From: Elusimicrobiota bacterium
GTDB lineage: Bacteria; Elusimicrobiota; Elusimicrobia; UBA1565; JACRDR01
Assembly: GCA_016207565.1 (NCBI GenBank)
Contig: JACQPK010000267.1
Span: 1 to 58,428 of the forward strand
Length of the DNA stretch: 58,428 nucleotides
Reading direction: 5' to 3'
This document shows positions 14,769 to 56,263 of the stretch, piece by piece; the stretch's first letter is position 1; each line of letters starts with the position of its first letter. The position numbers and the translations under genes are program-made. The notes beneath the pieces were generated by a model. That model did not search any database and was not told the DNA's origin. It saw only the letters and a list, made by a program, of their open reading frames with translations.

Positions 14769-14799
14769 GTCTCATCGGGTGCGACGCACCCGATGAGAC
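14769..14799. repeat. 31-nt palindromic element, copy 1 (GTCTCATCGGGTGCGACGCACCCGATGAGAC)
   Basis: 14-bp perfect stem with a 3-nt loop. The outer flanks CGCTGAC/GTCAGCG (14761-14767 and 14802-14808) extend the palindrome across both convergent stop codons. Confidence 0.8.
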
Positions 14800-21929: not shown

Positions 21930-22313
21930 GTGAGGCGAGAGTTCAACCCCTTCAAGCAGCTTGCCGTGGGCTGCGCGCGCGCCGCCTACGACAAGAAGGC
22001 CGAGGACGTCGTCCTGGTCGACGTGCGGAAGTCGAGCATCGTCGCGGACTTCATGCTGCTCGTCAGCGTGACCTCGCCGGCCCATCTCGAGGCCGTGCAG
22101 GCAGCCATCGAGGACGTCATGGAGCCCTCGGGCATCGAGCTGCGCCACCGCGACGGCTCGCATTCCGCGCTGTGGCGCGTGCTCGACTACGGCGGCCTGC
22201 TCGTGCACCTCATGCACCAGGAGGCGCGGCACTTCTACGGGCTCGACAAGCTCTATCACGACCAGCCGAAGCAGCGGTGGATGCCGGTCGCGCGAAAAGC
22301 GAAAGCCGGATGA
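21930..22313 (+). CDS. rsfS: Ribosome silencing factor RsfS
   Basis: DKKAEDVVLVDVRKSSIVADFMLLVSVTS...WRVLDYGGLLVHLMHQEARHFYGLDKLY matches the RsfS/IojAP pattern. GTG start. Confidence 0.85.
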   Translation: MRREFNPFKQLAVGCARAAYDKKAEDVVLVDVRKSSIVADFMLLVSVTSPAHLEAVQAAIEDVMEPSGIELRHRDGSHSALWRVLDYGGLLVHLMHQEARHFYGLDKLYHDQPKQRWMPVARKAKAG

Positions 22314-26033: not shown

Positions 26034-26043
26034 ATGCCCCCCT

Positions 26044-27546
26044 TCAACGGACGCCGACGGCTTTCTGCAGGACGCCGATCCTTCGGTCCAGCTCGCGGGC
26101 GATCTCCGCGTAGAGATGGCGCGCGTTGTCGGCGAGATCGGTGCGCCCGTGCGCGATCACGGGCGTGCGGCCGGCCTCCATGCGCTCGCGCGCCTCGCGG
26201 AGGCGGCGCTTGAACTCGCCCTGGCCCTCCGGCCAGTCCGCGCGCCAAAACGCGGTGCCGCCCCCCGTGCACGTATTCGAGGTCGATTGGGGGCCTTTGT
26301 CCATCTCGGCCTGGTATCCCATATAGTCGAGCTTCTTGAGCTCGGTCCACGCGCGGGCGTCGCCCGCGTTGCACGCGCTCAAGAGTTGAAACCAGTCCTG
26401 ATAGACCGGGTTCTGGCATCCAGGCGTCACGAGCAGCACGTTCGGGTCGATGACCGTGCGGCGGCAATCGGTCCAGAGGAAGAACTCGTTGGAGCCGGCA
26501 TACGGGAGGTACTCGTAGACGCGGTCCATCGGCGTGCGCTTCCAATCGGCCAGGAACACATCCCCGGCCTCGAAGCGCGCGTTCCGCGGGAGGCGAGCCG
26601 GCTCGGCGAGCCAGTCCGTCATGCGGATTCGAGCCTCGAGGAGTTGCCGCAAGGCGATGACCGCCAACGTCTCGGTGGGGCAGTCGCCGGAGGCAGGGCA
26701 CGTCCGCTGCGGCAGGGCCGCGAGGATCCGGTAATACTCGGCGAGCAGTTGCGCGTCCGACGGGAGCGCCCCCCCGGCCGGCGTCGAGCCCCTGGGCAAG
26801 GACCCCGCGGCGCCGGCGGAAACGGCTCCGCGTCCCCGAGTGACGGTATCCGACGAGCGTGCGTCTTCGCCCGAACGGGCCGCCGAAGCGCTCGAGCGTC
26901 CGGCCGCGCTCGCATCGGAGGAGCCCGCAGCGCCCGCGCCCAAGGACTTCGCCCCGGCGCTGGACCCGGCAAGAGCGGCCGAGCGGGCCGAGACCGCCGA
27001 AAGCCCGCCCAACGCGGGGAGCAGCGTCGGCGCGGTGCGCGCGACGCCGATCGAAGCGAGGCGCTTGAGCCGCTTCTTGGCGGCGGGCCGAGCGGGCTGG
27101 ACGACGGCGGCGGCCCGGGGCGCCTCGGCGGACACGGCGAGAAACGCGGAGCTCGCGCCGCCGAATCCGGCGTGCGCGACGACGCCGCCTTGGGCGGGAA
27201 CGGCGGCCGGGACGTCGCGGAGCGACTCGTCCACGTAGGCGGCGCCGGCCTGAGGCGGCGCGCTCCGGCCGCCGGCGCGGGCGACGGACGGGAACGTGGG
27301 TGAAAACGGCGTCCCGGCGACGGAGAAGGAGCCGGGCGCGGCCGACGGCGCCGGCGCCTCTGCGATCAGCTCGGGCAGGCGGTCGAACGGCTCGGGCTCC
27401 TCCGCGGGATCGACGGCGGCTCGCGCGGGCCACAACACCGGCTCCGCGCGCTCCTCGGCGGGCCGCTCCATCGAGAGCGCGACCCACAGGGCCGAGCCTC
27501 CGAGCGCGAGTCCCCAACCGGCGAGCCAGGTCTTCGTCATGATCAT
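26044..27546 (-). CDS. Membrane-anchored surface protein: shared N-module + type II Cys-rich C-terminal domain (geneB)
   Basis: Start MIMTKTWLAGWGLALGGSALWVAL overlaps the geneA stop (ATGA). Contains GFGGASSAFLA...AKKRLKRLASIGVARTAPT, then an unrelated ~250-aa domain with 8 Cys. The rest of the 953-aa ORF is a read-through artefact. Confidence 0.65.
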   Translation of the reverse strand: MIMTKTWLAGWGLALGGSALWVALSMERPAEERAEPVLWPARAAVDPAEEPEPFDRLPELIAEAPAPSAAPGSFSVAGTPFSPTFPSVARAGGRSAPPQAGAAYVDESLRDVPAAVPAQGGVVAHAGFGGASSAFLAVSAEAPRAAAVVQPARPAAKKRLKRLASIGVARTAPTLLPALGGLSAVSARSAALAGSSAGAKSLGAGAAGSSDASAAGRSSASAARSGEDARSSDTVTRGRGAVSAGAAGSLPRGSTPAGGALPSDAQLLAEYYRILAALPQRTCPASGDCPTETLAVIALRQLLEARIRMTDWLAEPARLPRNARFEAGDVFLADWKRTPMDRVYEYLPYAGSNEFFLWTDCRRTVIDPNVLLVTPGCQNPVYQDWFQLLSACNAGDARAWTELKKLDYMGYQAEMDKGPQSTSNTCTGGGTAFWRADWPEGQGEFKRRLREARERMEAGRTPVIAHGRTDLADNARHLYAEIARELDRRIGVLQKAVGVR

Positions 27547-28553
27547 CGCCCCGTGTAGCGGCGCCGGCAGGCCTCGTCCGCATTGCAGCGCCGCATGGCT
27601 TCCATGCACGCCGGGGTGACGTTCGCGCCCCGGCAGGCCTCGAGTCCGGTGACGCCGTTCTCCGCGCCGGTCTCGAGGACGCGCAGCAACTGGCGGCGCG
27701 ACTCGTCGTCCATGCGGCTCAAGAGCGCGGAGCTCTCCAGCCCCTCGACCTCTTGCGACTCTCCCGCGTCCTTCACCCTCGCCAGCTTCCAGTCGATGCC
27801 GCGAGCCTCCTGTCCTAGATCGCTTCGGCCGCGGACCTCCTCGTCGCGCAGGCCGTCGCCGGCGTTCTCTCCCGCCGCGCGGCGCGGACCGGCGCCGTAC
27901 GCGCTCGGCGCGTCCCGCAGATCCGTCGGCCGCTCGAGCGACGGGTTCGACGCGAGAAGGCGCCACGCGTTGCCGCTGTCGGAGCGGAATAGCCTCGCCT
28001 CGGCGGCCGCGCCCCGGACGACCGTCGCCGGGCGCGTCGCCGCGGCCCGCGGATACAACGACCGGCCGGACGCCGCGGACATGCCGGCGAGGGCCGAGGA
28101 GCGCTCTTGCGAGCGGGCCGGGCCCTGCCACCGCGCGCGGCCTTTCAGGGAGCCGGAGGCGTCCCACTCCATCGCCTTTCCTTCGTCCCACGCCGCGCCG
28201 GGAGCCGAGCGCGCCGCGGTCGGCTGCGCCTCCGCCGCCGCGCGCGAGGCGCCTAGCGCCGCCAACGAGGAACCGTTGCGCGGGCCGCCGCGCCGCCGGG
28301 CCGCGCCGGCCGCCGCCAGCGGCTCGCCGGCCGCGGTCCAGGCGGCGGCCGGACGCGCCGCGAAAAGCGGGCGGGGCGCCTCGAGCCTGCGGCCGACCGA
28401 GAACCGAGCGCCGTCCGCATCGGTCGTCCATAAGGCGAAGACCGCGCCGCTGGCCCCGCCTCCCAGCGAGAGGAGCGCCGCCAGGATGAGGAGCCGCCGA
28501 TCGGAACCGTCGGGCGGCACCGTCCTGCGCACCTGGATCATCGGCTCGTTCAT
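27543..28553 (-). CDS. Membrane-anchored low-complexity protein ending in C-x8-C-x6-C-x5-C (geneA)
   Basis: Start taken at MNEPMIQVRR...RLLILAALLSLGGGASGAVFALW. Cys motif CRGANVTPACMEAMRRCNADEAC is encoded at 27567-27635. Confidence 0.6.
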   Translation of the reverse strand: MNEPMIQVRRTVPPDGSDRRLLILAALLSLGGGASGAVFALWTTDADGARFSVGRRLEAPRPLFAARPAAAWTAAGEPLAAAGAARRRGGPRNGSSLAALGASRAAAEAQPTAARSAPGAAWDEGKAMEWDASGSLKGRARWQGPARSQERSSALAGMSAASGRSLYPRAAATRPATVVRGAAAEARLFRSDSGNAWRLLASNPSLERPTDLRDAPSAYGAGPRRAAGENAGDGLRDEEVRGRSDLGQEARGIDWKLARVKDAGESQEVEGLESSALLSRMDDESRRQLLRVLETGAENGVTGLEACRGANVTPACMEAMRRCNADEACRRRYTGR

Positions 28554-28559
28554 ACCGGC

Positions 28560-28588
28560 AGGATGCGCCGATCCCGAAGACCCCTCCA
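28560..28588 (-). promoter_or_regulatory. Promoter candidate TGGAGG-17-CATCCT, 6 nt before ATG 28553
   Basis: Read on the minus strand. It has the same TGGAG -35 box and spacing as the three upstream modules at 31270, 32861 and 38281. Confidence 0.4.
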
Positions 28589-28682
28589 CGAAAAAGCCGT
28601 TGACACCGGAATCTGTCGTAAAAACCGGAGCTTTTACGCCGGAAACCGTATTCGCACAAAATTCCTTCAGAGGCTCTCCGCC

Positions 28683-28711
28683 TTGCATTCCCACGCCGCG
28701 GACCGCATACT
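28683..28711 (+). promoter_or_regulatory. Promoter candidate TTGCAT-17-CATACT, 6 nt before ATG 28718
   Basis: Hexamers and spacing read directly. No Shine-Dalgarno is present. Confidence 0.4.
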
Positions 28712-28717
28712 TTCGCG

Positions 28718-29821
28718 ATGGCGCACGCCGCTTCGAAGCTCGACCTAAAAACCCTCGGCCTGCTCGCCGTCGTGGTGCTCCTGAGCATGCTCGCGGGGAC
28801 CGGGACGGTGCGCCTATTCCTCAAAGGGGGCGGGACCTCGAAGCCGAGCGCCGTAGACGTCACGGTCGCCCCCGAACCACCCGAGAAGAAGAGCGTCTTC
28901 GCCAAAGACGAGCCCGCCGGGGAGCCGGCGCCCCAAGCTCACGCCGAGGTGAAGGTGCCGGTGCTCCCGCTGCCGCCGACCCTGCCGCCCAAGCGCCGGA
29001 GGAAAATGCCGCCGCAGCCCGCTCCCGAGACCCCGGAGCCGCCCCAGATCGCGCCCGCGAACTTCTTCAACTACGGGATCGGGGAAGGGGTCGAGAAGTC
29101 GGGCGCGCGGTTGGACGTCCCCGCGGCCCCGGAGCGTCCGCGTCGCGAGCTTCAGCGCGTCCCGTCGATCGGCCAAGCCCGCCCGCGCAACGTCACGGGC
29201 GCCAAGCCCCCTTCCGTGCCTCGGCCGGAGGGAAGCGAGTTCAAATCCGCGAAGGCGTCCGGGGCCGCGCTCAAGGCGCATCTCAGCCGGATGTTCGGAG
29301 AGCCGGACGGGGCCCTGAGGGTGCCGCTGTCCAAGTTTACCACCGACACGCCCGGCGACGGCGAAGGGCGGACCGGCGAAAGCGGTCCGGCCCGAGGCAC
29401 GCCGGCGGGCGGGATCGACCCGCGGCTGCGGCGCATCAACAACGCCACGATCACCGACGAGGACGCGCAGAACCCCGCGATCGAGCCCCGCCACGCGACG
29501 TTCGACATGGCCGCGCCGCGGACGCTCCAGTACCGAGTGACCGACATCCCGAAAGAGCGCACCGTCGTCTGCTACGAGGTGCTCGCGCACCCCTGCTGCC
29601 CGGAGTGCGTCGGCCCCGGCAATCAATGCGAGAGCTCGGCGAACTACTCCTCGTTCAACGGGAACGCCGACTGGAGATACGAGGGCGGCGCCTGGCTCGG
29701 AACGTTGGTGTACGTCCCGGCGGCGTACGGCTGCGAGGGCATCCAGGTCCGCTTCGTCTTCGCCGACAAGCGGACCGGCAAACACGCCGGCGCCGGCATG
29801 AACGTCGTCAACGGCTACTGA
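28718..29821 (+). CDS. Membrane-anchored surface protein: diverged N-module + type I Cys-rich C-terminal domain
   Basis: TM segment LGLLAVVVLLSMLAG and the motif RPRRELQRVPSIGQARP. The C-terminal region ATFDMAAPRTLQYRVTDIPKERTVVCYEVLAH... aligns with geneC AEFDMNDPRTIRYEITGLAAEKTTVCYEVLDH... Confidence 0.65.
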   Translation: MAHAASKLDLKTLGLLAVVVLLSMLAGTGTVRLFLKGGGTSKPSAVDVTVAPEPPEKKSVFAKDEPAGEPAPQAHAEVKVPVLPLPPTLPPKRRRKMPPQPAPETPEPPQIAPANFFNYGIGEGVEKSGARLDVPAAPERPRRELQRVPSIGQARPRNVTGAKPPSVPRPEGSEFKSAKASGAALKAHLSRMFGEPDGALRVPLSKFTTDTPGDGEGRTGESGPARGTPAGGIDPRLRRINNATITDEDAQNPAIEPRHATFDMAAPRTLQYRVTDIPKERTVVCYEVLAHPCCPECVGPGNQCESSANYSSFNGNADWRYEGGAWLGTLVYVPAAYGCEGIQVRFVFADKRTGKHAGAGMNVVNGY

Positions 29822-31284
29822 TGCGGCTGACGACGAAGATCACGCTGCTGCAAACGGGTTTCGCCGCCGTCGTGCTGCTCGCGACGCTGCTTCCCTTGGT
29901 CGTTTCCGAACGGCGCCACGTGCGCGAGCTCGAGGAGAAGCGCCAGGCCGCGCAGGTGGAGCAGCTCGCCCGCGCCTGCGGCGAGGCGTTCAAGAGCCAA
30001 GACGAGGCCGCCGCGCTCGGCTATCTCAAGACGCTCGTGCTGGTCTCGCCGCCCGGCTCGATCAGCTACGGCGCCTTCCTCGACGCCGAGGGCCGGACGT
30101 GGCTCCACACCGAGTTCCTCCACGGCGGCCGCGCCTCGAAGGGGAAGCGCGCGGCGGACCCGCGCGTAGACGCGGCGCTCGCCTCGCCCGAAGGCGGGCG
30201 CTCGGGGAACCTCATCTGGGCCCCGGTATATTTCACCGGACCCGCCGGCCGCGAACGCCGCGGCACCGCGGTCATCGCCTACGACCCGGCCGCGGCCTCG
30301 CAAGCCCTCGGCGCGCTCCAACGCGACTCGCTCTCGAGGGTCGCGCAGGTAGCGTTGCCGGGCCTGGGCCTCGGGCTCCTGCTTGCGTTCGTGCTCGGCC
30401 GCGCGCTGGCGGAACCGATCCAGCGCTTGGCCTTCGGGACGCGCCGCGTCGGCGAAGGGAGGCTCGACACGCGGATCCCCGACGAGGGCTCCGACGAGCT
30501 CGGCGACCTGGCGCGGGACTTCAACGCGATGGCCGCCAAGCTCAACGAGCTCGACGAGCTCAAAGACAGCTTCCTAGCGCAGATCACGCACGACCTGCGC
30601 AACCCGCTTACGGCGATCATCGCGCACGTGAACGTGCTCGGCATGGGAATCCACGGACCCGTGAACGAGAAGCAGAAGAAGAACCTGGACCTCGTCCAAG
30701 AGAGCTCGCTTTACCTCAACGAGCTGATCGGCGACATCCTCGACCTGACCAAGCTCGAGGCGGGCAAGATGGAGTTCGCGCCGAAACCGGTGGACGCCCA
30801 CGCCGCGGCCCGCGCCGTACTCGACCTCAACTCCGCGCGGGCCGCGGAGTACGGCGTCGCGCTCGAGTGCGCCGTGCCCGAGGGCGCCTCCGTCACGGCC
30901 GACCCCGAAGGCCTAAAGCGCGTCCTCATCAACCTCGTCTCCAACGCGCTGAAGTTCACGCCCAAAGGCGGCAAGGTGACGGTCGGCCTCGCCTCGGTCA
31001 ACGGCTCGGACCGGATCTCGGTGTCCGACACCGGCATCGGGATCCCGGAGGACAAGCTCGGCCTCCTATTTAGGAAGTTCTCCCAGGTGGCCGAGACCAA
31101 GAACAAGGTGCGAGAGGCGGCCGGCACCGGCCTCGGGCTCGTCATCTGCAAGCAGATCGTGGAGGCCCACGGCGGCACGATCGGCGTCGAGAGCGTCTAC
31201 CGGAAGGGCACGACGTTCTTCTTCCACCTTCCCAAGGCCCCCCGGCCGGAAGACCCCGCCGTTCCCTCCCTCAAAGACGGCTGA
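29821..31284 (+). CDS. HAMP domain-containing sensor histidine kinase
   Basis: The start shares one nt with the previous stop (TGATG). Two TM segments flank a ~150-aa periplasmic region. Has HAMP, an H-box FLAQITHDLRNPLTAI, and HATPase GTGLGLVICKQIVEAHGGTIGVES. Confidence 0.9.
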   Translation: MRLTTKITLLQTGFAAVVLLATLLPLVVSERRHVRELEEKRQAAQVEQLARACGEAFKSQDEAAALGYLKTLVLVSPPGSISYGAFLDAEGRTWLHTEFLHGGRASKGKRAADPRVDAALASPEGGRSGNLIWAPVYFTGPAGRERRGTAVIAYDPAAASQALGALQRDSLSRVAQVALPGLGLGLLLAFVLGRALAEPIQRLAFGTRRVGEGRLDTRIPDEGSDELGDLARDFNAMAAKLNELDELKDSFLAQITHDLRNPLTAIIAHVNVLGMGIHGPVNEKQKKNLDLVQESSLYLNELIGDILDLTKLEAGKMEFAPKPVDAHAAARAVLDLNSARAAEYGVALECAVPEGASVTADPEGLKRVLINLVSNALKFTPKGGKVTVGLASVNGSDRISVSDTGIGIPEDKLGLLFRKFSQVAETKNKVREAAGTGLGLVICKQIVEAHGGTIGVESVYRKGTTFFFHLPKAPRPEDPAVPSLKDG

Positions 31285-31388
31285 AACGATCCTCCCTCAG
31301 CCTGAAAATACTCCGAAAAGTAATGCGGTAACACCGTTCAGCGCCAAGTTTATGGAGACCGCGCCCGCCTCGGGCTACCGTAAGGCCA
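31270..31388 (+). promoter_or_regulatory. Conserved upstream module, copy A (boxes 1-5; -35 TGGAGA 31353-31358, -10 TACCGT 31376-31381)
   Basis: Colinear with the copies at 32861 and 38281. Box 1 overlaps the kinase stop codon. Confidence 0.55.
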
Positions 31389-31403
31389 GTGAGGAGGCCG
31401 GAC

Positions 31404-32726
31404 ATGAAGAACCGATTCTGGATCGCGCTCGCGAGCTTGGCTCTCGGTGCGTTCGCCGAGGCCCGGGAGGCGCTGGCGCCGAGGGCGCAGGTCGAGTTCG
31501 AGCTGGGCGTCGTGCGCCACGAGTTGCGCAAGAAGAGCTCCGGGCCCCGCTGGAGCGCCGGGATCACCTCGATGGCCCAACTGTCGCTCGACGCCCGCCG
31601 CGCGCGGCTCGGCGGAGGCGGCGGGGCGCCTTCGGGAACCCTCCCCAAGCTCTCGGCCCTCTCCGTCCCCGGAGCCGGCGCGAGCGCGGTCGACTGGCGG
31701 GACCGCGACGGCCGGGACTTCGTGACGCCGGTCAAGAACCAAGGCAAGTGCGCCAGCTGCTGGGCGTTCTCGACCACCGCGGCGCTGGAGTCCTACATCC
31801 TGAGGCGCTCGAGCGTCTCCTCCCAGATCGACCTCTCCGAGCAGATCGTGGTTTCCTGCAGCGGCGCCGGGAACTGCGTCGAGGGCGGCTTCCAGGACTA
31901 CGCGGCGGAGTATCTCCAGAGGATCGGAACGGCCGACGAGTCGCTCGCTCCCTACCAGGCGGCCGACGCGCCGTGCACGCTCCTCGGGGGCTCTTGGACG
32001 AACGAGACGCTGCGGGCGGGGCAGTGGTTCTCGGTCGACGGCTCCGTCGACGGCCTGCGCTCCGCGCTGGCCGACCACGGGCCGGTCGTCGTCTGGTTCC
32101 GGGTCTACGCCGACTTCTTCTTCTATCAGTCCGGCGTCTACGAGCACGTCGCGGGCGACTGGATGGGCAACCACTCGGTCGTCCTGGTCGGCTACGACGA
32201 CACCCAGCGCGCCTTCATCGCCAAGAACAGCTGGGGGACCCGGTGGGGCGACCGAGGCTATTTCCTGATCTCCTACTCGGCCGTGTCGTCGGAGGTCGAG
32301 CTCGGACGCTGGTCGCTCGCGTTCGCGCCGAAGGAGCCGTCCCCGGTCCAGGTCCGCGTCGCCCAGCCGAGGCCGAACGCGATCGTCGCGCCGGACGCCG
32401 CCGCGACGGGAAGCGTGACGTTCGAAGGCGACGAGAACTTCCGCGTGACCGCGTTGGAGTTCACGGTCGACGGACGGAGGCTTCCGCCGGTCGAGCCCGC
32501 TCAGGCGTGGTCGGTCGCGCTTTCGACGGAGAGCCTCGCCGACGGCCCCCACACGCTGACGGTCACGGCGGCCGACAACGCCGGGCACACCCGCACGGTG
32601 TCGGTTCCGTTCACGGTCGGGGAGACGCTCGTCGACGACTTCGACTTCCGCCACCCCGGTCCGGACACGGACCTGGAGGACCGCCGCCGCCGATTCCGGC
32701 GCCGGCCCTTCACGCTGCGGCCGTGA
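31404..32726 (+). CDS. Papain-like (C1A) cysteine peptidase, secreted, with C-terminal Ig-like domain
   Basis: GAGGAGG is 6 nt upstream of the start. Signal peptide MKNRFWIALASLALGAFA. Catalytic contexts QGKCASCWAFS (Cys), GNHSVVLVGYD (His) and KNSWG (Asn). An alternative GTG start lies at 31389. Confidence 0.85.
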   Translation: MKNRFWIALASLALGAFAEAREALAPRAQVEFELGVVRHELRKKSSGPRWSAGITSMAQLSLDARRARLGGGGGAPSGTLPKLSALSVPGAGASAVDWRDRDGRDFVTPVKNQGKCASCWAFSTTAALESYILRRSSVSSQIDLSEQIVVSCSGAGNCVEGGFQDYAAEYLQRIGTADESLAPYQAADAPCTLLGGSWTNETLRAGQWFSVDGSVDGLRSALADHGPVVVWFRVYADFFFYQSGVYEHVAGDWMGNHSVVLVGYDDTQRAFIAKNSWGTRWGDRGYFLISYSAVSSEVELGRWSLAFAPKEPSPVQVRVAQPRPNAIVAPDAAATGSVTFEGDENFRVTALEFTVDGRRLPPVEPAQAWSVALSTESLADGPHTLTVTAADNAGHTRTVSVPFTVGETLVDDFDFRHPGPDTDLEDRRRRFRRRPFTLRP

Positions 32727-32761
32727 CCGCGGGTTTCTCGCCGGCGGCTGCGCCTACCTAG

Positions 32762-32845
32762 GCTAGTGCGGCCTTGATCGGCCAGCGCGAGCGCGCGGTA
32801 GCGCCGCGTCTGCGCGTCATCTTCGATGAAGAGGGTCGTCTTTCC
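32762..32845 (-). pseudogene. Fragment of an OmpR-type response regulator N-terminus
   Basis: GKTTLFIEDDAQTRRYRALALADQGRT aligns with the intact regulator GKTILMIEDDGNTRRAFAAALASLGHRV (36116-36799). There is no start codon, and similarity stops after ~28 codons. Confidence 0.45.
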
Positions 32846-32860
32846 TTGAGCCCTGGGGCT

Positions 32861-32974
32861 CTCAAAGACCGCTGAAACCGTCCCGCGCCCCCTGGAAATA
32901 GACGAAATTTCCGGCGAAATCCGTTCAGAGAAGAATGCGTGGAAGCGGCGCGGCGGCCGGGCTACCCTGCGAGC
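32861..32974 (+). promoter_or_regulatory. Conserved upstream module, copy B (-35 TGGAAG 32940-32945, -10 TACCCT 32963-32968, ATG 32975)
   Basis: Colinear with copies A and C. The -10 is followed by exactly 6 nt and then ATG, with no SD. Confidence 0.55.
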
Positions 32975-33208
32975 ATGAACGCTACAGCAGAGAGCCTGAG
33001 GCCGATCACGATACTCGCCGCCGGGCTCAGCGCCCAGGCAACGCCGCAGCCGGCAACAACTCTGACCAAGGCGATCGGAGCGTCGAGTGCCCACGTCGCC
33101 TTGGCGACCGGGCCGGCCGGCGTCTTGGCGACCGGCGCCGAGCCCGGGGTCCCCGACCGCCGCAAACGGCTGGCTGCAGGTGTTGGCGCCCGATCGGTGA
33201 TCCCATGA
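32975..33208 (+). CDS. 77-aa stand-alone copy of the shared N-module (signal peptide + GASSAHVA...RRKRLAAGVGARSVIP)
   Basis: Signal-like ITILAAGLSAQA. The C-terminal half aligns with geneB GGASSAFLAV...AKKRLKRLASIGVARTAPT. ATGA overlap with the next gene. Confidence 0.45.
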   Translation: MNATAESLRPITILAAGLSAQATPQPATTLTKAIGASSAHVALATGPAGVLATGAEPGVPDRRKRLAAGVGARSVIP

Positions 33209-34248
33209 AACGCTTCTTGCTGCCGGCCGTCGCGAGCCTGCTCGTCCTTCTCGGACCGGGAGCCGAGGCGGGCCCGCGCAAGCGGAAGCTCGCGCCGCTC
33301 ACCTCGTGGCCCTCCGCGGCGCAGACCGCGAAGAGCCTGTCCGGCGTCTTTACCGCGGCGCCCGGCGACGCCGGCCTCCAGTCGTCCGAGGCCGGCACGC
33401 CTTCGGCGCAAGACGGACGGGGCGGCCTGGCCTTCGGCCGCGCGACGGGCGTCGAGGCTTCGGTGCTCCGGTCGGGCCTGCCGTCGGGAGCGCACGCGTC
33501 CGCGTCGACGCAGCATGCGTCCTCGACGAAGACCGCCGCGGGGGCCTCGGAGCCCGAGCCCGCCTCGGCGTCGTGCCGCGGCGAGGACTGGGTCGATCTC
33601 TCATGCTCGGTGCCGCCCCAGCCGGAGGTGCAGGCGCTCACGGCCGAGGAGCGGGAGGAGTGCGAGGCCGAGGCCCGAGCGGCGCCCTCCTACCTCGGCG
33701 CGGAGTGCAACCCGGCGGCATGGTGGCTGCGGCGGCACCATTATGAGACTCCCGCGTACTTGGACGCCCAGGCGGGCTGCCGCGAGCGCGTCCACAACGT
33801 CTGGTGGACGCGGCGCACCTTCGATAGCTGTCCGGAGACGTTCGGCTCCGGGCAGCGCCGGATGATCGAGGGACCCGCGGGCGCCCTCGTCACATTCAAG
33901 GTGCAGACCCAGAAGTTCCAGCCCGGGATCCACCACGTCAACGAGTGGGTCGCCGCCGAGCGCCCGATAGCGCAGCCGCGTTCGGTGAAGGCGTGGATCT
34001 CGGCCGAGCCCGCCGGGGAAGCCGTGGCCGGTCTCGGATGCAGCAGGGAAGGCGTGTTCATCTTCAGCGTCGACCTCAGGTATCTGCTTTACGACGCGGG
34101 CGGGCCCGTGCCGGCGGACACGCAGCGCGCCGTGGACACGTACCAGTGGTGCCTGCTCAAGGCCGAGCGCGTATACTACATCAACTTCGAGATCACCGAG
34201 TGCGACGCGGCGGTCTGCGGAGTCGTCAGCGAGCTGTACCTGCACTAG
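33205..34248 (+). CDS. Secreted Cys-rich protein (paralog of 38396-39466)
   Basis: Signal peptide MKRFLLPAVASLLVLLGPGAEA. PRKRKL...GLQSSEAGTP aligns with PKRKL...GLQSTQAGTP. The C-terminal ...QWCLLKAERVYYINFEITEC aligns with ...NLCILEPGGHYYLNVAGRC. Confidence 0.65.
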   Translation: MKRFLLPAVASLLVLLGPGAEAGPRKRKLAPLTSWPSAAQTAKSLSGVFTAAPGDAGLQSSEAGTPSAQDGRGGLAFGRATGVEASVLRSGLPSGAHASASTQHASSTKTAAGASEPEPASASCRGEDWVDLSCSVPPQPEVQALTAEEREECEAEARAAPSYLGAECNPAAWWLRRHHYETPAYLDAQAGCRERVHNVWWTRRTFDSCPETFGSGQRRMIEGPAGALVTFKVQTQKFQPGIHHVNEWVAAERPIAQPRSVKAWISAEPAGEAVAGLGCSREGVFIFSVDLRYLLYDAGGPVPADTQRAVDTYQWCLLKAERVYYINFEITECDAAVCGVVSELYLH

Positions 34249-34291
34249 TGGGGAAGTTCCGTTGCGCCTCCCGATTTGGGAGGATCGCCTC

Positions 34292-34798
34292 ATGAACACG
34301 TCCAAGGCGACCGGGCTCGGGGCGTGCCTCGCCCTGCTCGCGATGCTCTTCGGCTTCATCCTCGGCGGGGCTTTCGGAGGCGCCGAGAGCTCCATCAAGC
34401 AGCGCCTCGCCGACTCGGGCGCCGCGGCGCTGCAGACCGCCTACGCGGGCGACAAGGCCGCGATGGACGCGGTCGTGAAGAAGTCCTGGGAATACCTCCA
34501 GCGCGCCCACCTCCACGGCGGCGCGATCGGGGCGGGCGCGCTCGCCTCCATCCTGGCCCTCACGTTGCTCGCGGCGCCGGGACGCCTGCGGGACGCCAGC
34601 GCGCTCGCGCTCGGCGCCGGCTCGCTCCTCTACCCCGTGTTCTGGCTCGTCGCGGGCCTGGCCGCCCCGGGGCTCGGGAGCACGGGCGCCGCGAAGGAGG
34701 CGTTCAAGTTCTTGGCGGTGCCGGGCGCGGGGCTGTGCATCCTCGGGCTATGCGGGACGCTGGCCTGCGTGGCGCGCGGGCTCCGGTCGAAGCCCTAG
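34292..34798 (+). CDS. Integral membrane protein, hypothetical (about 4 TM)
   Basis: GGGAGGA lies 7 nt upstream of the start. The protein is hydrophobic and Gly/Ala/Leu-rich. Confidence 0.55.
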   Translation: MNTSKATGLGACLALLAMLFGFILGGAFGGAESSIKQRLADSGAAALQTAYAGDKAAMDAVVKKSWEYLQRAHLHGGAIGAGALASILALTLLAAPGRLRDASALALGAGSLLYPVFWLVAGLAAPGLGSTGAAKEAFKFLAVPGAGLCILGLCGTLACVARGLRSKP

Positions 34799-35595
34799 CG
34801 CGACGCCGAGTCCGCGAACCAGACGAGGGGCCCGTTCCAGGACTCGTGGCTGAACGCGCGGACACGGACCGGGGCCATAAAGCCGCCGCCGGCGTTGAAA
34901 TCGCCGGGCGTATGCTGCGACTCGACGGCCTTCAGCCCGGTCGCCTGCTCGATCGAGGATGCGAGTGCCTTCGCGTCGCCGCCTTGGAAAAAGACGACCG
35001 ACGGCGCGCCGAGCCCCGCCTCCGCCTCGAGCCACTTGTCCTGGACGATCTTGCGCGGATCGGTGTAGGTCACCTGCAAGGCGATCTCGGGGTTTTTCTC
35101 GCCGTTGAGCGAGAGCTTCAGCGCGTAGAGGCCGCGGCCCGACGACTTGACCTTCGAGAACCATTGCTCGTAGCGCGAGTCGTCCGGCGACTCCTCGAGT
35201 CCGGCCTTGGCGCGGGCGGCCGCCCAGTCCTTCTCGTCGGTGAGCGTTTCGATCCGACCCGTGACCGGGCTCCCCGCAAATCCCATCGACTTCGACATCC
35301 CCCGCGTCCCTTCGCTCTTGATCCCCGCCGCTCGCGCGCCGAGCCTCGCGTGGAGCGTCTTCTCGTCGTCGCCGAGCGCCGCGCCGGATAGTCCCTTGCC
35401 GGGCGCGAGTCCCCGCGGCGCCACGAACACCCTCACCACGGCCGGCCCGTTCGCGCTGACGATGAGCCGGTCGGTGCGCAGCTTCCCGTCGACGACGGTC
35501 GTGCTCTCGCGGCCCGTGGCGCCGTGCAGGCAGGCGAAGGCGGCCGAACCGGCGGCGGCGAGCGTCAGGACGGCGAGGAGGAGTCGGGTCTTCAT
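34795..35595 (-). CDS. Secreted hypothetical protein
   Basis: GGGAGG is upstream of the start. Signal peptide MKTRLLLAVLTLAAAGSAAFA, followed by a complex globular sequence. Confidence 0.6.
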   Translation of the reverse strand: MKTRLLLAVLTLAAAGSAAFACLHGATGRESTTVVDGKLRTDRLIVSANGPAVVRVFVAPRGLAPGKGLSGAALGDDEKTLHARLGARAAGIKSEGTRGMSKSMGFAGSPVTGRIETLTDEKDWAAARAKAGLEESPDDSRYEQWFSKVKSSGRGLYALKLSLNGEKNPEIALQVTYTDPRKIVQDKWLEAEAGLGAPSVVFFQGGDAKALASSIEQATGLKAVESQHTPGDFNAGGGFMAPVRVRAFSHESWNGPLVWFADSASR

Positions 35596-35644
35596 GGGGG
35601 GCCTCCCGGGCGCTCGGAAGGATATCCCCGGAGCGATTGTCACG

Positions 35645-36115
35645 TCAAGGGGTCTTCTTCTTGACGCGGACGAGCACGTGGCGCACCTCGAGCGTGTCCC
35701 CCTCGAAGTCCTCGTGGAGCCCGAGCTCGACGACGCGGTACCACAGCCGTCCGGGCTCCACCGCGTAGACGTGGTTCGTGCACAGGCAGGCGAACTCGAA
35801 GCCGAGAGAGGCCTCGGGCGGCTTGACGTGGTGGGGCGCGGCGAAGAAGCGCAGGAGCCCCTTCGTCTCGTTACGATACACGAGCACGAGCTTGCGCGTT
35901 TCTCCGGGCCGCAACGCGACGTTCGCGCCCTTGATCTCGGGCCCCGCGGGGAGCCGCGAGGCATCCGAAACCTCGCCCATCTTCCAGAGAGGCAGGCGGG
36001 TGCTCGCGTCGTACTCGTGCACGCGCATCGCCTTCGGGAGGTCGCGGTAGTCCCACCGGATGGAGACGGTCGCGGCCCACGCGCTCGCCGCGAGCAGCGG
36101 CAGCAGCCCGGTCAT
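35645..36115 (-). CDS. Secreted hypothetical protein
   Basis: 156 aa with signal peptide MTGLLPLLAASAWAA. It starts immediately after the regulator stop. Confidence 0.6.
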   Translation of the reverse strand: MTGLLPLLAASAWAATVSIRWDYRDLPKAMRVHEYDASTRLPLWKMGEVSDASRLPAGPEIKGANVALRPGETRKLVLVYRNETKGLLRFFAAPHHVKPPEASLGFEFACLCTNHVYAVEPGRLWYRVVELGLHEDFEGDTLEVRHVLVRVKKKTP

Positions 36116-36799
36116 CTAGGAGAAGTAGCGGAAGCCCTTGCCGGGGACGGCCTGGAGCCGGTCCGCCAGGGACTGCGGGAGCTTGCGGCGCAGCTTCGAC
36201 ATGTGAGCGTCGACGAGGTTGTCGACGGCGACCGTCCGCCAGAGCGTCGAGAGGATCCACTCGCGGCTGAGCACCTTCGGCCGCTTCTTCACGAGCGCGT
36301 AGAAAAGGTCGAACTCCTTGGCGGTGAGGTTCGGAATCGTGACGTCGCCGAACTTTACGAGATGCGCGGCGGGGTCGATGGTCAGGTCGCCGGCCTCGAG
36401 CTGCCCCCCCTCGTCCTTGTCGAGCGCGAGGCGGTTCATGAGCGCCTGCGCCCAGAGGAGCAGCTCCTGCGGGAGGACGGGCTTCACGAGGTACTGGTCC
36501 GCGCCGGACTCGAAGCCCTCCTTCTTCTCGTCGAGCTGTCCCTTGCCGGTGAGCATGATCACCGGCGTCGCGTGAAGCGTCTTGTGCGCGCGGACCTTCT
36601 TGCAGAAATCGTAGCCCGTGCCGTCGGGGAGCCCCACGTCGAGCACGATGAGGTCGGGCTTCTCCGTCTGGAAGAGGTGGTAGCCGACCTCGATCCCCTC
36701 GGACTCCAGCACGCGATGGCCGAGGCTGGCGAGCGCCGCGGCGAACGCGCGGCGCGTGTTGCCGTCGTCCTCGATCATCAGGATCGTCTTGCCCGCCAT
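36116..36799 (-). CDS. OmpR/PhoB-type response regulator
   Basis: Receiver domain (ILMIEDD...DLIVLDVGLPDGTG...MLTGKG) plus a winged-helix C-terminus (LTAKEFDLFYAL...VDAHMSKLRRKL...GKGFRY). TATACT lies 8 nt before the ATG. Confidence 0.9.
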   Translation of the reverse strand: MAGKTILMIEDDGNTRRAFAAALASLGHRVLESEGIEVGYHLFQTEKPDLIVLDVGLPDGTGYDFCKKVRAHKTLHATPVIMLTGKGQLDEKKEGFESGADQYLVKPVLPQELLLWAQALMNRLALDKDEGGQLEAGDLTIDPAAHLVKFGDVTIPNLTAKEFDLFYALVKKRPKVLSREWILSTLWRTVAVDNLVDAHMSKLRRKLPQSLADRLQAVPGKGFRYFS

Positions 36800-36834
36800 T
36801 GGCCGCGAGTATATCAACTTGGATGCCGGTTGAG

Positions 36835-36843
36835 TGCTATCAT
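36835..36843 (+). promoter_or_regulatory. Extended -10 candidate TGCTATCAT, 6 nt before ATG 36850
   Basis: Identical 9-mer to the tRNA-Ser promoter candidate. No SD is present. Confidence 0.4.
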
Positions 36844-36849
36844 GGCCGC

Positions 36850-37608
36850 ATGGCGCACGCGGACACGATCTTCGCGTACTCCGATGGAGCCTGCTCGGGC
36901 AACCCAGGGCCCGGCGGCTGGGGCGTCGTCCTGATCCTGCCGGAAGGCCGCGTCCGCGAGCTCGGCGGCGGCGAGCGCCCCACGACCAACAACCGGATGG
37001 AGCTCCTGGGCGCGATCGCGGCGCTGCGCGCGGTCGCCGACCGCCCGGAGCCCGTGAAGCTGTTCACGGACTCCTCCTACGTCGTCAACGGCGCCACGCT
37101 CTGGGTCCACGGCTGGCGGCGGCGCGGCTGGAAGACGATGGAAGGCAAGGACGTCCTCAACCGCGACCTCTGGGAGACGCTGACGGAGCTATCGGCCGCC
37201 CGGCGCGAGCGCCTCAAGTGGGTCCAGGTGAAGGGCCACGCGGGCCACGACCTCAACGAGCGCTGCGACGAGATCGCGGTCGCCTACACGAAGGGGAAGC
37301 GCCCCGAGCTCTACGACGGGCCGGCGATCGGCTGCGGCTACTCGCTGCTGGAGCCGGGGGCGGAGCTGCTGCGCAGCGCGGTGCGAAAACCCTCCGGTCC
37401 GATCCGCGAGAAACCGAAGGGCGGCTACGGGACCAGGCGCCGTTGCGCCGCCGCCAGCTGGTACCTGAGCCTCGTGGCGGGCAAGTTCGAGAAGCACGCC
37501 ACCTGGCCCGAGTGCCAGGCGCGCGTCAGCGGCGTGAGTGGCGCCAGGTTCAAGAAGGTCACCTCCCCCGACGAGGAGGAGTCCATCCGCCGCGCCTGGG
37601 GCTGTTAA
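36850..37608 (+). CDS. rnhA: Ribonuclease HI with C-terminal hybrid-binding (Cauli_VI/RNase H1 N-terminal-like) domain
   Basis: RNase H core SDGACSGNPGPGGWG...TNNRMEL...TDSSYV...HAGHDLNERCDEIA. The C-terminal WYLSLVAGKFEKHATWPECQARVSGVSGARFKKVTSPDEEES matches the HBD pattern. Confidence 0.85.
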   Translation: MAHADTIFAYSDGACSGNPGPGGWGVVLILPEGRVRELGGGERPTTNNRMELLGAIAALRAVADRPEPVKLFTDSSYVVNGATLWVHGWRRRGWKTMEGKDVLNRDLWETLTELSAARRERLKWVQVKGHAGHDLNERCDEIAVAYTKGKRPELYDGPAIGCGYSLLEPGAELLRSAVRKPSGPIREKPKGGYGTRRRCAAASWYLSLVAGKFEKHATWPECQARVSGVSGARFKKVTSPDEEESIRRAWGC

Positions 37609-37649
37609 AAAAGTAAACCCTGGGGACTGTCCCCAACGTTTACTTTTTT
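37607..37649. terminator. Bidirectional intrinsic terminator between convergent genes
   Basis: AAAAAAGTAAAC...TGGGGA-ctg-TCCCCA...GTTTACTTTTTT. This is a GC hairpin flanked by an A-tract and a T-tract that also pair with each other. Confidence 0.75.
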
Positions 37650-37651
37650 GC

Positions 37652-38233
37652 CTAGGGAGCCTGGGGCTCGTCGGGCTCGGTGATGTAGCCGGAACCCTCG
37701 ATCCAGCCGGAGCCGCTCACGCGGACCCAGCCGCCGTTGTTGTAGCCGTTGACCGGGATCGAGCCCTCGACCCGGATCGTCCCCACGTAGCGCCCTCCTT
37801 TATAGAGCGTCACGTAGGCCGACGGCCGGGCCCAGCCGTTCACCCAGCTTCCGTTGACGTAGTAGGTATCGGAGTGGGACACGGTGACGAAGCCGCTCAG
37901 GTAGCGGCCCTCGTTGTCTTGGAGCTGCGTGTTGCCGCTGACCGTGATCCAGACGTAGCCGGTCCGGCCGTTCCCGACGTAAGCGTCCCCGGAGACGTAG
38001 ACGTGGCCGCGGAGCGTGACGTACTTGCTCTGCCCCGCCGCGACCTTCCGCAGGGACGCGCCGGGCGCGGCGGTCCGGGCCTCGAGGGCGCGGATCGGAT
38101 GGCGAAGCTTGAAGGCCCCGAGGGACCCAAACGCCTGGACGGCGGAGGCGGCGGACACTTCCGCCGAGCCGACCGCCGCGGCGGGCGCGGCGAGACCGAA
38201 CGACAACCCGAGCATGAGGAGTCCTTTCATCAT
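37652..38233 (-). CDS. Secreted beta-rich Gly/Tyr/Val repeat protein, hypothetical
   Basis: Signal peptide MMKGLLMLGLSFGLAAPAAA. TTGCAC-18-TAGAAT-6-ATG promoter geometry at 38240-38269. Confidence 0.6.
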   Translation of the reverse strand: MMKGLLMLGLSFGLAAPAAAVGSAEVSAASAVQAFGSLGAFKLRHPIRALEARTAAPGASLRKVAAGQSKYVTLRGHVYVSGDAYVGNGRTGYVWITVSGNTQLQDNEGRYLSGFVTVSHSDTYYVNGSWVNGWARPSAYVTLYKGGRYVGTIRVEGSIPVNGYNNGGWVRVSGSGWIEGSGYITEPDEPQAP

Positions 38234-38280
38234 GCGCCGATTCTAGGACTTTGGGCCCGGCTTGTGCAAACGGACCGGGA

Positions 38281-38395
38281 CTCAATAAGCGCTGAACCCC
38301 ACAGGTGGAGACGCCAAAATCGTTGAATTCATTACATTTTCACGTTGAGCGCTGTTTGGTTGGAGTCCCCGAAGTGCGGGGGCTAGACTATCCGC
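38281..38395 (+). promoter_or_regulatory. Conserved upstream module, copy C (-35 TGGAGT 38361-38366, -10 TAGACT 38384-38389, ATG 38396)
   Basis: Colinear with copies A and B. The -10 is followed by exactly 6 nt and then ATG, with no SD. Confidence 0.55.
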
Positions 38396-39466
38396 ATGAA
38401 GAACATCCTGCTTCTCACGGCCCTCGCGACCCTCACGCTCGCCGCGCCGGCCGCGGCCGCCCAAAAGCCCTTCGCCCGGACCACTCCGAAGCGCAAGCTC
38501 TCACGCCTACAGGCCCCGCCTTCGAACCGGCCGGGCTTCCTGAATTTCTGGGCCGCCTTCACCGCCGGCTCCGCCCCGCAGACCGGCCTCCAGTCGACGC
38601 AGGCCGGCACTCCGGAGAGCGGCCGGTTCATCGGCGGCCCGGCGCTCGGCGCCGCCACGGCGACCCGATACGGCGGCATCGGCGACACTGCGAGCTCCGG
38701 CAGTCCGTCGACGTCCACGCACGCCGGGGTGATTTCGAATACCTTCCCTACATCCCTGTCATTCGACCAGCGGAGCACCGAACTCCGGCCGTACTCGAGC
38801 GCGCCCGGACCGCGGCGGCTCTCGCGCGACTATGTGTCCAACCCGCCGCTGATCTGCCCCTACGGCAGCCCGGCGGGCGAGCCGGGCACCGGCCTCTGCC
38901 GCTACCGAGGCCTGGTGATGGCCGAGGCCTACCCACCCCCCACTCCGGAGGGTTTCGTGGAGAGGGAGATCTACGCGCTGGAGCATTGGCCCGGGCAGGG
39001 CTGGGGGCATCGGATGCTGCGGATGGGAGCCGGCGCCAAGTGGGCGGTGCGCTTCAAGGCCGAAACGACGAACGCCGTCCAAGTCGGCGGCCTGTACGCC
39101 CTTCCCCTCCGCAGCCCGATGGCAATGTTCGTCTCAGTCTCGCGCAGGCCCGGAGATTTCGACGTGGCGCCGGGCTGCCTGCGCACGCCGGCGAGTCTGG
39201 CGAACGACGACGGCGGCGGCGCGCCCAACGTCGACGCGGTCATCGAGCTGCGCTTCACCCGGACGCCCGACGCGGGCCAGCGCCAACAGGCGGAGCTCGG
39301 GAACCTCTGCATCCTCGAGCCCGGCGGCCACTACTACCTCAACGTCGCCGGGCGCTGCGCGCCGGAGCTCGACCCGGACAATCTCTACCGCGAGGCCCGA
39401 GACACGTGGGGCTGCCCCGTCGCGCTATCGAATATAAACCGCTACGTCAACGCCAGCATGCCTTGA
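38396..39466 (+). CDS. Secreted Cys-rich protein (paralog of 33205-34248)
   Basis: Signal peptide MKNILLLTALATLTLAAPAAAA. See the paralog alignment blocks listed for 33205-34248. Confidence 0.65.
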   Translation: MKNILLLTALATLTLAAPAAAAQKPFARTTPKRKLSRLQAPPSNRPGFLNFWAAFTAGSAPQTGLQSTQAGTPESGRFIGGPALGAATATRYGGIGDTASSGSPSTSTHAGVISNTFPTSLSFDQRSTELRPYSSAPGPRRLSRDYVSNPPLICPYGSPAGEPGTGLCRYRGLVMAEAYPPPTPEGFVEREIYALEHWPGQGWGHRMLRMGAGAKWAVRFKAETTNAVQVGGLYALPLRSPMAMFVSVSRRPGDFDVAPGCLRTPASLANDDGGGAPNVDAVIELRFTRTPDAGQRQQAELGNLCILEPGGHYYLNVAGRCAPELDPDNLYREARDTWGCPVALSNINRYVNASMP

Positions 39467-39474
39467 CCGCGCAG

Positions 39475-40752
39475 CTAACAGTGCCGGAAGGCGCGGCGGG
39501 CGGCGGCGATCGTCCGATCGATATCCGCGGGGGTGTGCGCCGCCGACAGGAAGGCGGCCTCGAACTGCGCTGGCGGCAGGTACACGCCCGCGTCCAGCAT
39601 CGCCTGGAAGAACCGCGCGTAGCGCTTGGTGTCCGCGGTCTTCGCCGACGCGTAGTCGCGCACCGCGTTCGACGTGAAAAACAGCGTGAACATCGAGCCG
39701 GTCGACTGAACGCGCGCCGGCACGCCGGCCTCGTCCGCCGCCTGCTGCAGGCCGCGCGCCAGCCGGCGCGTCAACGACTCGAGCCGTGCGTACGGGGACG
39801 TCCGCCGCAGCGTCCGCAGGCACTCGAGGCCCGCCGCGACCGCGACCGGGTTGCCCGAGAGCGTCCCGGCCTGATACACCGGCCCCAGCGGCGCGACGAG
39901 CTCCATCACCTCTCTGCGCCCGCCGTAAGCGCCGATCGGGAATCCCCCCCCCACGATCTTGCCCAGGCAGGTCAGGTCGGGCTCGATCGCGAAGCGCTCC
40001 TGCGCGCCGCCGAGCCCGAGGCGGAAACCGGTGATGACCTCGTCGAAGACGAGCAGCGCCCGGTGGCGCTTCGTGATCCGCCGAAGCGCCTCGAGAAAGC
40101 CTCGCTCCGGCAGGACGGTCCCCATGTTTCCCACGACGGGCTCGACGATCAGCGCCGCGATGCGCGCGCCGTGCTTGCGGAACGCCGCCTCCACGGCCGC
40201 GGGGTCGTTGTAGGGCAGGACGATCGTGGTGCGCGCCCAGGCCTCCGGCACGCCGGCGGAGTCGGGGCGGCCCAGCGTCAGCGCCCCGGAGCCGGCGGCG
40301 ACCAGGAGGCTGTCGGCGTGGCCGTGGTAGCAGCCCTGGAACTTGATCACGCAGTCGCGCTTCGTCCAGGCGCGGGCGACGCGCAGCGCGCTCATCACCG
40401 CCTCGGTGCCGGAGCTCGTCAGCCGGACGCGCTCCATCGAGGGATAGGCGCGGCGGATCTCCTCGGCGAGGAGGACCTCGCCTTCGGTCGGCGCCCCGAA
40501 GCTCGCGCCGCGGGCGGCGGCGGCGGCGGCCGCGCGCGTCACCCCGCGGTGCGCGTGCCCGAGGATGAGCGGCCCCCAGGACAGGCAGTAGTCGATGTAG
40601 CGCTTGCCGTCGGCGTCGATGAGCCGCGCGCCGGAGCCCCGCTGGGCGAAGACGGGCGTGCCGCCGACGGCCCGGAAGGCGCGGACCGGGGAGTTTACGC
40701 CGCCGACGAGGACGCGTTGGGCGCGGGCGAACAAGGCTCGAGAGCGTTTCAT
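39475..40752 (-). CDS. hemL: Glutamate-1-semialdehyde 2,1-aminomutase
   Basis: VNSPVRAF, SGTEA, VFDEVITGFR and the GKIVGGGFP (PLP-Lys) context. Confidence 0.92.
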   Translation of the reverse strand: MKRSRALFARAQRVLVGGVNSPVRAFRAVGGTPVFAQRGSGARLIDADGKRYIDYCLSWGPLILGHAHRGVTRAAAAAAARGASFGAPTEGEVLLAEEIRRAYPSMERVRLTSSGTEAVMSALRVARAWTKRDCVIKFQGCYHGHADSLLVAAGSGALTLGRPDSAGVPEAWARTTIVLPYNDPAAVEAAFRKHGARIAALIVEPVVGNMGTVLPERGFLEALRRITKRHRALLVFDEVITGFRLGLGGAQERFAIEPDLTCLGKIVGGGFPIGAYGGRREVMELVAPLGPVYQAGTLSGNPVAVAAGLECLRTLRRTSPYARLESLTRRLARGLQQAADEAGVPARVQSTGSMFTLFFTSNAVRDYASAKTADTKRYARFFQAMLDAGVYLPPAQFEAAFLSAAHTPADIDRTIAAARRAFRHC

Positions 40753-52391: not shown

Positions 52392-52422
52392 GTCTCATCT
52401 GGTGCGACGCACCAGATGAGAC
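52392..52422. repeat. 31-nt palindromic element, copy 2 (GTCTCATCTGGTGCGACGCACCAGATGAGAC)
   Basis: It differs from copy 1 only at the two paired stem positions (G:C changed to T:A). It starts 2 nt after the GNAT stop. Confidence 0.8.
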
Positions 52423-56167: not shown

Positions 56168-56263
56168 GGCGAGTGGCCAGTATAGACCTTCACATCGCCA
56201 AGGCACAAGTTTGACGCGGGCGCCGCTCGTGGGAATGGAGGCCGGCGTTATCATATTTCCGCA

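Follow-up and report, generated by a model that had tools for sequence, protein, structure and literature searches.

Direct repeats of two hexamers separated by 5 bp are a site type of OmpR/PhoB-family response regulators, the PmrA box being CTTAAT-N5-CCTAAG (PMC3973317), and OmpR occupies the ompF and ompC upstream regions with tandem arrays of 20-bp sites (PMC3050692). In high-GC bacteria, a TANNNT hexamer ~12 nt upstream of the start codon is the signal of leaderless genes (PMC3160421; see also PMC3898074, PMC12340547). Here, we describe an upstream module that resembles each of these systems in an Elusimicrobiota bacterium (labelled Elusimicrobia bacterium). We analysed a 58,428-nt stretch of its metagenome-assembled genome (MAG; assembly GCA_016207565.1, contig JACQPK010000267.1; G+C ~70%), which is referred to here as the window, and found three colinear copies of a ~115-nt module (A, B and C), the first preceding a papain-family peptidase gene, the second a 77-amino-acid (77-aa) open reading frame (ORF) followed by an orphan secreted-protein gene, and the third another orphan secreted-protein gene. 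Comparison of these copies with each other and with a related genome suggests that each is probably a regulator-dependent promoter region, and that together they make up a small local two-component regulon of mainly fast-evolving orphan secreted proteins. The module is conserved and looks functional, but it is of a known kind, the regulated promoter of a small regulon, and represents no new kind of element or mechanism.

The three copies are real and lie, as a sequence-only reading of the stretch had placed them, at 31270-31388 (A), 32861-32974 (B) and 38281-38395 (C) on the plus strand, where a MAFFT alignment is colinear over 126 columns. Copy A begins with the final five codons and the stop of a sensor kinase gene and extends to the +1 predicted for the peptidase gene, and copy C lies in a divergent intergenic region that it shares with the minus-strand gene 37652-38233. 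A hidden Markov model (HMM) built from all three copies matched only these three sites in the window (next match E>1). In leave-one-out searches, the A+C model recovered B (E=1e-6) and the B+C model recovered A (E=4.5e-5); the A+B model returned C, at E=0.22 when the entire window was searched and at E=0.015 among 54 upstream regions, C being in both searches the top non-self match, colinear over model positions 6-117. Invariant columns are clustered, with 25/45 in runs of at least four, a value reached by 1/20,000 shuffles. Pairwise identity among the three copies is only 46-56%; over all pairs, within as well as between genomes, it lies at 47-57%, a plateau that would be expected if constraint were limited to the boxes. 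Spacing is likewise as previously read: box 3 starts 18 nt before the start of the -35-like hexamer, and the -35/-10 spacer measures 17 nt, in 3/3 copies.

Box 1, with which each copy begins, is a direct repeat of the form CTSAAN-N5-CTGAAN: CTCAAA-gacgg-CTGAAA in A (31270-31286; half-sites at -118/-107), where it overlaps the kinase codons CTC AAA GAC GGC TGA, CTCAAA-gaccg-CTGAAA in B (32861-32877; -114/-103) and CTCAAT-aagcg-CTGAAC in C (38281-38297; -115/-104). The expression first written for this box held one position too many; the correct form, CTCAAWRASSGCTGAAMC, matches 3/3 copies exactly. The exact pattern CTSAA-N6-CTGAA occurs three times in the window, at the box 1 sites only, vs. 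0.06 occurrences expected. A position weight matrix derived from only the six box-1 hexamers picked out box 3, an inverted half-site whose position is exactly -52..-47 in 3/3 copies (GTTCAG at 31336-31341 in A and at 32923-32928 in B, each a minus-strand CTGAAC; GTTGAG at 38344-38349 in C, a minus-strand CTCAAC), and its extra matches numbered 4 vs. 0.72 expected in shuffles (reached by 22/5000 shuffles). Boxes 1 and 3 had been read as inverted relative to each other (GCTGAA/TTCAGC), which is exact in A, where TTCAGC is present, but not in B (TTCAGA) or C (TTGAGC). Box 2, in turn, proved to be less a sequence box than AT-rich stretches around -81, -70 and -59, their positions being kept while A-tracts swap to T-tracts; copy A has a second tandem pair inside this region, CTGAAA-atact-CCGAAA (31302-31318). 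The combined AT profile shows a 10-10.5-nt periodicity (reached by 30/5000 shuffles), part of which is plain positional conservation.

A full HMMER search with the protein encoded at 33205, the secreted-protein gene behind copy B, returned one relative, P0106 (45% identity), whose contig is a 17-kb locus (L034) of the related genome GCA_016212845.1; protein identities between the window and this locus are 87% for HemL, 91% for ALAD and 85% for the regulator. A fourth copy, D (L034 5658-5776), stands directly before P0106 and is matched over its full length by the three-copy HMM (E=3.5e-9). It has the box 1 CTGAAC-gatcg-CTGAAA at -115/-104, ATTCAG at -52..-47, a -35 TAGAGG, a 17-nt spacer and, at -12, cGGC-TACCCT, from which 6 nt lead to the secreted-protein ATG. 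The sequence-only reading had staked itself on the boxes and their spacing being kept in a related genome, and copy D keeps both: box 1 and the segment from -35 to ATG are 84-86% identical between B and D, compared with 72-77% for the best coding segments and 42-45% for the proteins. The intergenic region of D is shared, back to back, with a divergent OmpR-family regulator gene (RR1), the product of which is 66% identical to the window regulator and near-identical to it in the DNA-binding C-terminus. RR1 has a putative leaderless promoter of its own (L034 5641-5680, minus strand: TTTCAG, 17 nt, TATACT, 7 nt, ATG), the -35 and part of the spacer of which are the reverse complement of D box 1, an arrangement that suggests autoregulation of RR1. 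A fifth copy, box 1 only (CTGAAG-gcccg-CTGAAT), lies 120 nt upstream of an L034 operon encoding homologues of the window 28718 and 38396 proteins, and its remainder is degenerate (HMM E=0.1). Using the exact pattern derived from the window alone, we thus counted two occurrences in L034 vs. 0.01 expected; the five exact matches of the two loci all lie on the strand of the gene, ~100-120 nt upstream of island genes, and all five copies carry the direct repeat with its 11-bp period. The HMM found no further module copies in the 58-kb window or the 17-kb L034.

The 3' part of the module has the form of a promoter, and boxes 4 and 5, previously taken for the -35/-10 pair of a leaderless mRNA, still appear best read in that way. 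The -10 is TACCCT in B (32963-32968) and TAGACT in C (38384-38389), each followed by 6 nt and then an ATG (32975 and 38396, respectively); in A, the same geometry leads from TACCGT (31376-31381, preceded by GGGC) over 7 nt to GTG 31389, and then to GAGGAGG and the in-frame ATG 31404. In B, C and D, no Shine-Dalgarno (SD) sequence intervenes between -10 and start codon, and the GAGGAGG before the in-frame ATG 15 nt downstream of the GTG leaves the true start in A ambiguous. The module had been said to end exactly on the start codon of a secreted-protein gene in two copies; this holds for C, and for D in the related genome, but B ends on the ATG of the 77-aa ORF, with the secreted-protein gene 33205 beginning 230 nt further on. 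The -35-like hexamers (TGGAGA at 31353-31358 in A, TGGAAG at 32940-32945 in B, TGGAGT at 38361-38366 in C and TAGAGG in D) conform to T[GA]GA[GA]N, which retains T1, G3 and A4 of TTGACA and is a weak match, and they stand 17 nt from the -10 in 4/4 copies; the -35 and -10 hexamers have 3-4/6 consensus matches each.

This start-codon geometry extends well beyond the module. A TAnnnT hexamer stands 5-7 nt before the start codon at 11 of the 54 gene starts in the window vs. 0.95% of all ATG/GTG triplets. Leaderless geometry as in B and C is thus usual in this genome rather than module-specific. The genes concerned include hemL, an RNase H gene and the gene divergent from copy C; starts with this geometry and without an SD are found, for example, at 1487, 13784, 17879, 36850, 38233 (minus strand), 40752 (minus), 43978 (minus) and 52436, and several further gene starts have a TAnnnT 8-9 nt away. 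Leaderless or near-leaderless mRNAs thus seem to be common in this Elusimicrobiota MAG (~20% of the window gene starts). As in the leaderless promoters of high-GC bacteria, B, C and D lack an SD and have the first T of TAnnnT at position -12 relative to the ATG; unlike those promoters, which have been described mainly in Actinobacteria and Deinococcus-Thermus, the ones reported here come from an Elusimicrobiota MAG and are predicted from sequence alone.

We favour an OmpR/PhoB-family protein as the binder of the 5' part because box 1 is a hexamer-5 bp-hexamer direct repeat and a regulator of that family is encoded nearby. In the window, this regulator is MBI4347482.1 (36116-36799, minus strand), the sole DNA-binding regulator found by a Pfam scan that covered the ~54 window ORFs other than three long ones (43981-47316, 47483-50701 and 53474-56206); in L034, there are RR1, divergent from D, and a second regulator, RR2. 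As in PmrA/Pho boxes (PMC3973317), two direct-repeat hexamer half-sites are separated by a 5-bp gap, CTSAAN resembles CTTAAT/CCTAAG, the sites lie upstream of a poor -35, and family regulator genes are encoded beside the targets. In contrast to those boxes, the tandem pair of the module is located at about -115/-104 and not beside or over the -35, there is an additional single inverted half-site at -52..-47, binding is here a prediction, and the window regulator, a generic family member that scores under every NCBIfam equivalog cut-off, is no orthologue of any named member. The module is also like the OmpR arrays at ompF and ompC (F1-F2-F3 and C1-C2-C3; PMC3050692) in that ~60-70 bp upstream of the -35 are taken up by several phased sites, each of two ~10-bp sub-elements, and in that the promoter would be activator-dependent; it differs in that good conservation is confined to the distal pair and a single proximal half-site, the middle consisting of AT-rich tracts rather than clear sites.

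The sequences themselves show the motif architecture, its positions and statistical non-randomness, its conservation across genomes and its adjacency to regulator genes. From these features we infer that a protein binds, which regulator and kinase are involved, that the effect is activation rather than repression, and where transcripts start, and we propose that the parts work together as follows. The 3' third would be a housekeeping sigma-70-type promoter with a weak -35 (T[GA]GA[GA]N), a 17-nt spacer and GGC followed by a TAnnnT -10; transcription would start on or a few nt from the start codon, yielding leaderless mRNAs from B, C and D, and from A either a transcript with a leaderless GTG start or one with a 16-nt leader carrying an SD. 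The 5' two thirds would hold sites for one DNA-binding protein with the half-site CTSAAN, namely the distal tandem pair at about -115/-104 and the inverted half-site at -52..-47, which precedes the -35 by one helical turn, while the AT-rich patches near -81, -70 and -59 may help the DNA to bend. The likeliest binder is a phosphorylated OmpR/PhoB-family regulator (in the window that of 36116-36799, in L034 RR1 and/or RR2), which may be controlled by the HAMP-HisKA-HATPase sensor kinase MBI4347475.1 (29821-31284, plus strand; its limits match the public annotation), the candidate partner encoded immediately upstream of the peptidase gene. The bound regulator would then recruit RNA polymerase and so compensate for the weak -35. 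The transcript from B would begin with the 77-aa ORF, the stop codon of which overlaps the ATG of 33205 (ATGA), and this overlap could permit coupled translation of 33205.

Several observations weigh against this proposal. A scan for CTCAA-N5-GCTGAA-N40-55-GTTSAG-N12-GGAR in 185,579 GTDB species genomes and in JGI metagenomes yielded no further copies, its 12 GTDB and 20 JGI matches all being chance-like (in unrelated taxa or coding sequence; best HMM E=0.019), and the cross-genome comparison covers two genomes only. Box 1, at -118..-98, precedes the -35 by 65-80 bp, whereas classical PhoB/PmrA boxes are closer; no site adjoins or overlaps the -35, the promoter-proximal element being the lone box 3, and a lone inverted half-site is unusual in comparison with head-to-tail OmpR-type dimers. 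Copy A departs by 3-4 nt from B, C and D in how far box 1 stands from the promoter, and box 2 is poorly conserved as a half-site in B, C and D. There is no box 1 at the promoter of the window regulator gene 36116-36799, and the idea that this gene is autoregulated was rejected: its promoter has a single CTCAAC half-site, which is not conserved in L034. Finally, the kinase and regulator genes are 5 kb apart, and their pairing is for this reason a guess.

In a first alternative, a repressor or a looping protein from another family would use boxes 1 and 3 as its operators, a GCTGAA...TTCAGC inverted repeat with arms 45-49 bp apart, to silence an otherwise constitutive promoter. Indeed, the second half of box 1 and box 3 are mutually inverted, the module core is quasi-palindromic to the extent that the model matches the reverse strand of C at E=0.006, and box 1 in L034 overlaps the -35 and spacer that belong to the divergent regulator gene, as is typical of repression. 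We nonetheless regard this explanation as unlikely: the spacing of the inverted repeat varies (49, 45 and 46 nt), an inverted repeat alone leaves unexplained why the first hexamer of box 1 (CTSAA) is conserved, -35 and -10 hexamers as weak as these are expected of activated and not of repressed promoters, and the only regulator found nearby among the Pfam-scanned ORFs is of the OmpR type.

A more elaborate form of the activator model would have the distal head-to-tail tandem and the proximal inverted half-site act as an unusual bipartite architecture, brought onto one helix face by phased A/T tracts and wrapped or looped by the paralogous RR1 and RR2, the whole being a lineage-specific switch for an Elusimicrobiota island that encodes a rapidly evolving, leaderless secretome; we consider it distinctly unlikely in this form.

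The sequence-only reading had proposed a dedicated sigma factor or an activator. Of these, the former, an alternative sigma factor that would read the TGGAG -35 and the GGGCTA -10 with the upstream boxes being secondary, now appears very unlikely, and a weak activator-dependent promoter fits better. It is true that GGCTA is invariant in four copies and that the -35 lacks the TTG found upstream of the neighbouring genes 28718 (TTGCAT) and 38233 (TTGCAC). However, the -10 is an ordinary TAnnnT: ~10 unrelated genes with canonical -10 boxes have it at the same distance from the start codon, and GGGCTAnnnT also occurs with a canonical -35, TTGACT, upstream of gene 3996. Furthermore, T1, G3 and A4 of TTGACA are kept in 4/4 copies, there is neither a sigma-54 GG-N10-GC (-24/-12) nor boxes of the extracytoplasmic function type (GGAAC...CGT, with a conserved CGT -10), no sigma gene or sigma/anti-sigma pair was found among the ~54 Pfam-scanned window ORFs (the three long ORFs lying outside the scan), and the conserved boxes 1 and 3 would be left unexplained.

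It seems still less probable that the copies survive as passive relics from the duplication of upstream regions and share no regulation, even though 33205 and 38396 are paralogous across their first ~88 residues and the island is rich in paralogue families. As had been argued before, simple carry-over from gene duplication does not account for copy A, which precedes an unrelated peptidase. The boxes are also better conserved between genomes than coding sequence is; identity is limited to boxes at fixed spacing with randomised spacers, and it plateaus at the same level for all pairs, within and between genomes. A structured RNA (a 5' leader, riboswitch or small RNA) with a box 1/box 3 stem, another suggestion of the sequence-only reading, is highly improbable: GCTGAA and TTCAGC can pair, and C folds better than shuffles (z=-2.2), but z is -0.9 for A and +0.4 for B, minimum-energy folds differ among copies, the RNAalifold consensus amounts to only -6.8 kcal/mol with a broken box 1/box 3 stem and no compensatory changes, there is no Rfam match even at E<=1, and a genuine -10 would put the module upstream of the RNA. 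Several copies with short inverted termini (the second half of box 1, and box 3) might point to a dispersed repeat or a miniature mobile element, but this is barely conceivable, given that 5/5 copies share the strand of the gene that follows and precede its start by a fixed distance, that neither the two loci nor the genome and metagenome collections hold copies elsewhere, and that copy interiors are not conserved.

The copies lie in an island mostly of orphan secreted-protein genes between the housekeeping genes argS (22277-23953) and hemL (39475-40752). These genes (window 24711-29821 and 33205-39466; L034 2707-4941) are fast-evolving and form two paralogue families within the island, 24711~26044~28718 and 33205~38396; their order differs between the window and L034, and the flanking hemL-ALAD-FecR-addA block is syntenic. 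A 1233-aa ORF at 27583-31284 was rejected as a single gene, being a high-G+C artefact of mechanical ORF listing that covers the minus-strand gene 27543-28589, the plus-strand orphan gene 28718-29821 in another frame and the 487-aa kinase 29821-31284.

Copy A precedes a secreted papain-family (C1) peptidase gene (31389-32726, plus strand), which would start at the leaderless GTG 31389 or at the SD-led ATG 31404; a homology search with the peptidase found its nearest relative at only 38% identity, and the locus of that relative (L033) is without the module. Copy B precedes the 77-aa ORF (32975-33208, plus strand; HY553_11520 in the NCBI annotation), which may be a small leaderless ORF whose translation is coupled to that of the next gene, or else a leader of 230 nt specific to the lineage. 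Its G+C content at third codon positions is 0.78, compared with 0.88-0.94 in real genes, and its coding signal is weak; it has no paralogue, shows no significant similarity to the P0106 N-terminus and is absent from L034, where the module directly abuts the secreted-protein ATG. The orphan secreted Cys-rich protein gene behind it (33205-34248, plus strand) encodes the homologue of P0106 and paralogue of the 38396 protein, and a structure prediction from its two-sequence alignment reached a pLDDT of only 45, too low to be of use. Copy C precedes the putatively leaderless orphan secreted-protein gene 38396-39466 (plus strand), 38396 being the first possible start past an in-frame stop. Homology searches returned only itself for the 38396 protein and kinase cores only for the kinase ORF, and cluster look-ups of conserved neighbours led to short contigs only, which end before the island; the homology routes are mostly empty because the lineage is barely sampled.

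Other features of the stretch are recorded here in their own right. A fourth, degenerate copy upstream of 28718 (28600-28717) was considered and dropped, the resemblance being weak and the HMM giving no match on the right strand; the 28718-kinase operon is preceded by a canonical promoter (TTGCAT-17-CATACT), by CTTCAG at -53 and by the half-site-like words CGGAAA and CGGAAT, and the evidence that this is a relative of the module is not significant. The possibility that C box 1 also serves the divergent gene 37652-38233 was rejected as well, the L034 homologue having a leaderless promoter without box 1. GC-rich palindromes lie in the 17-nt -35/-10 spacers of A (GCCCG-cct-CGGGC, 31364-31375) and C (CCCCG-aagtg-CGGGG, 38368-38382) and end in the conserved GGGC, in a context of 70% GC DNA. 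Downstream of the regulator gene, a 156-aa protein (35645-36115, minus strand) has an above-cut-off match to NCBIfam NF047614, the Leptospira lipoprotein adhesin family LIC11469/Lsa20. The window also has three copies of a nearly perfect 31-nt palindrome, GTCTCATCnGGTGCGnCGCACCnGATGAGAC, between convergent genes (14769-14799), inside an AddA-like gene (44385-44415) and abutting the -10 (TATACT) of the leaderless gene 52436 (52392-52422); none was found in L034, and it may be an element like the repetitive extragenic palindromes or an operator.

The module provides a concrete candidate motif for binding, CTSAAN-N5-CTGAAN with an inverted half-site at -52, together with a list of likely targets of a two-component system in a phylum, Elusimicrobiota, for which there has so far been almost no regulatory knowledge, and the suggestion made earlier that the regulator 36116-36799 be tested is apt. 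The frequent leaderless, -10-adjacent starts predicted for this lineage bear on the annotation of gene starts in such MAGs. Lastly, the module marks the orphan secreted proteins and the papain-like peptidase as probably co-regulated, which would be the best available handle on their function.

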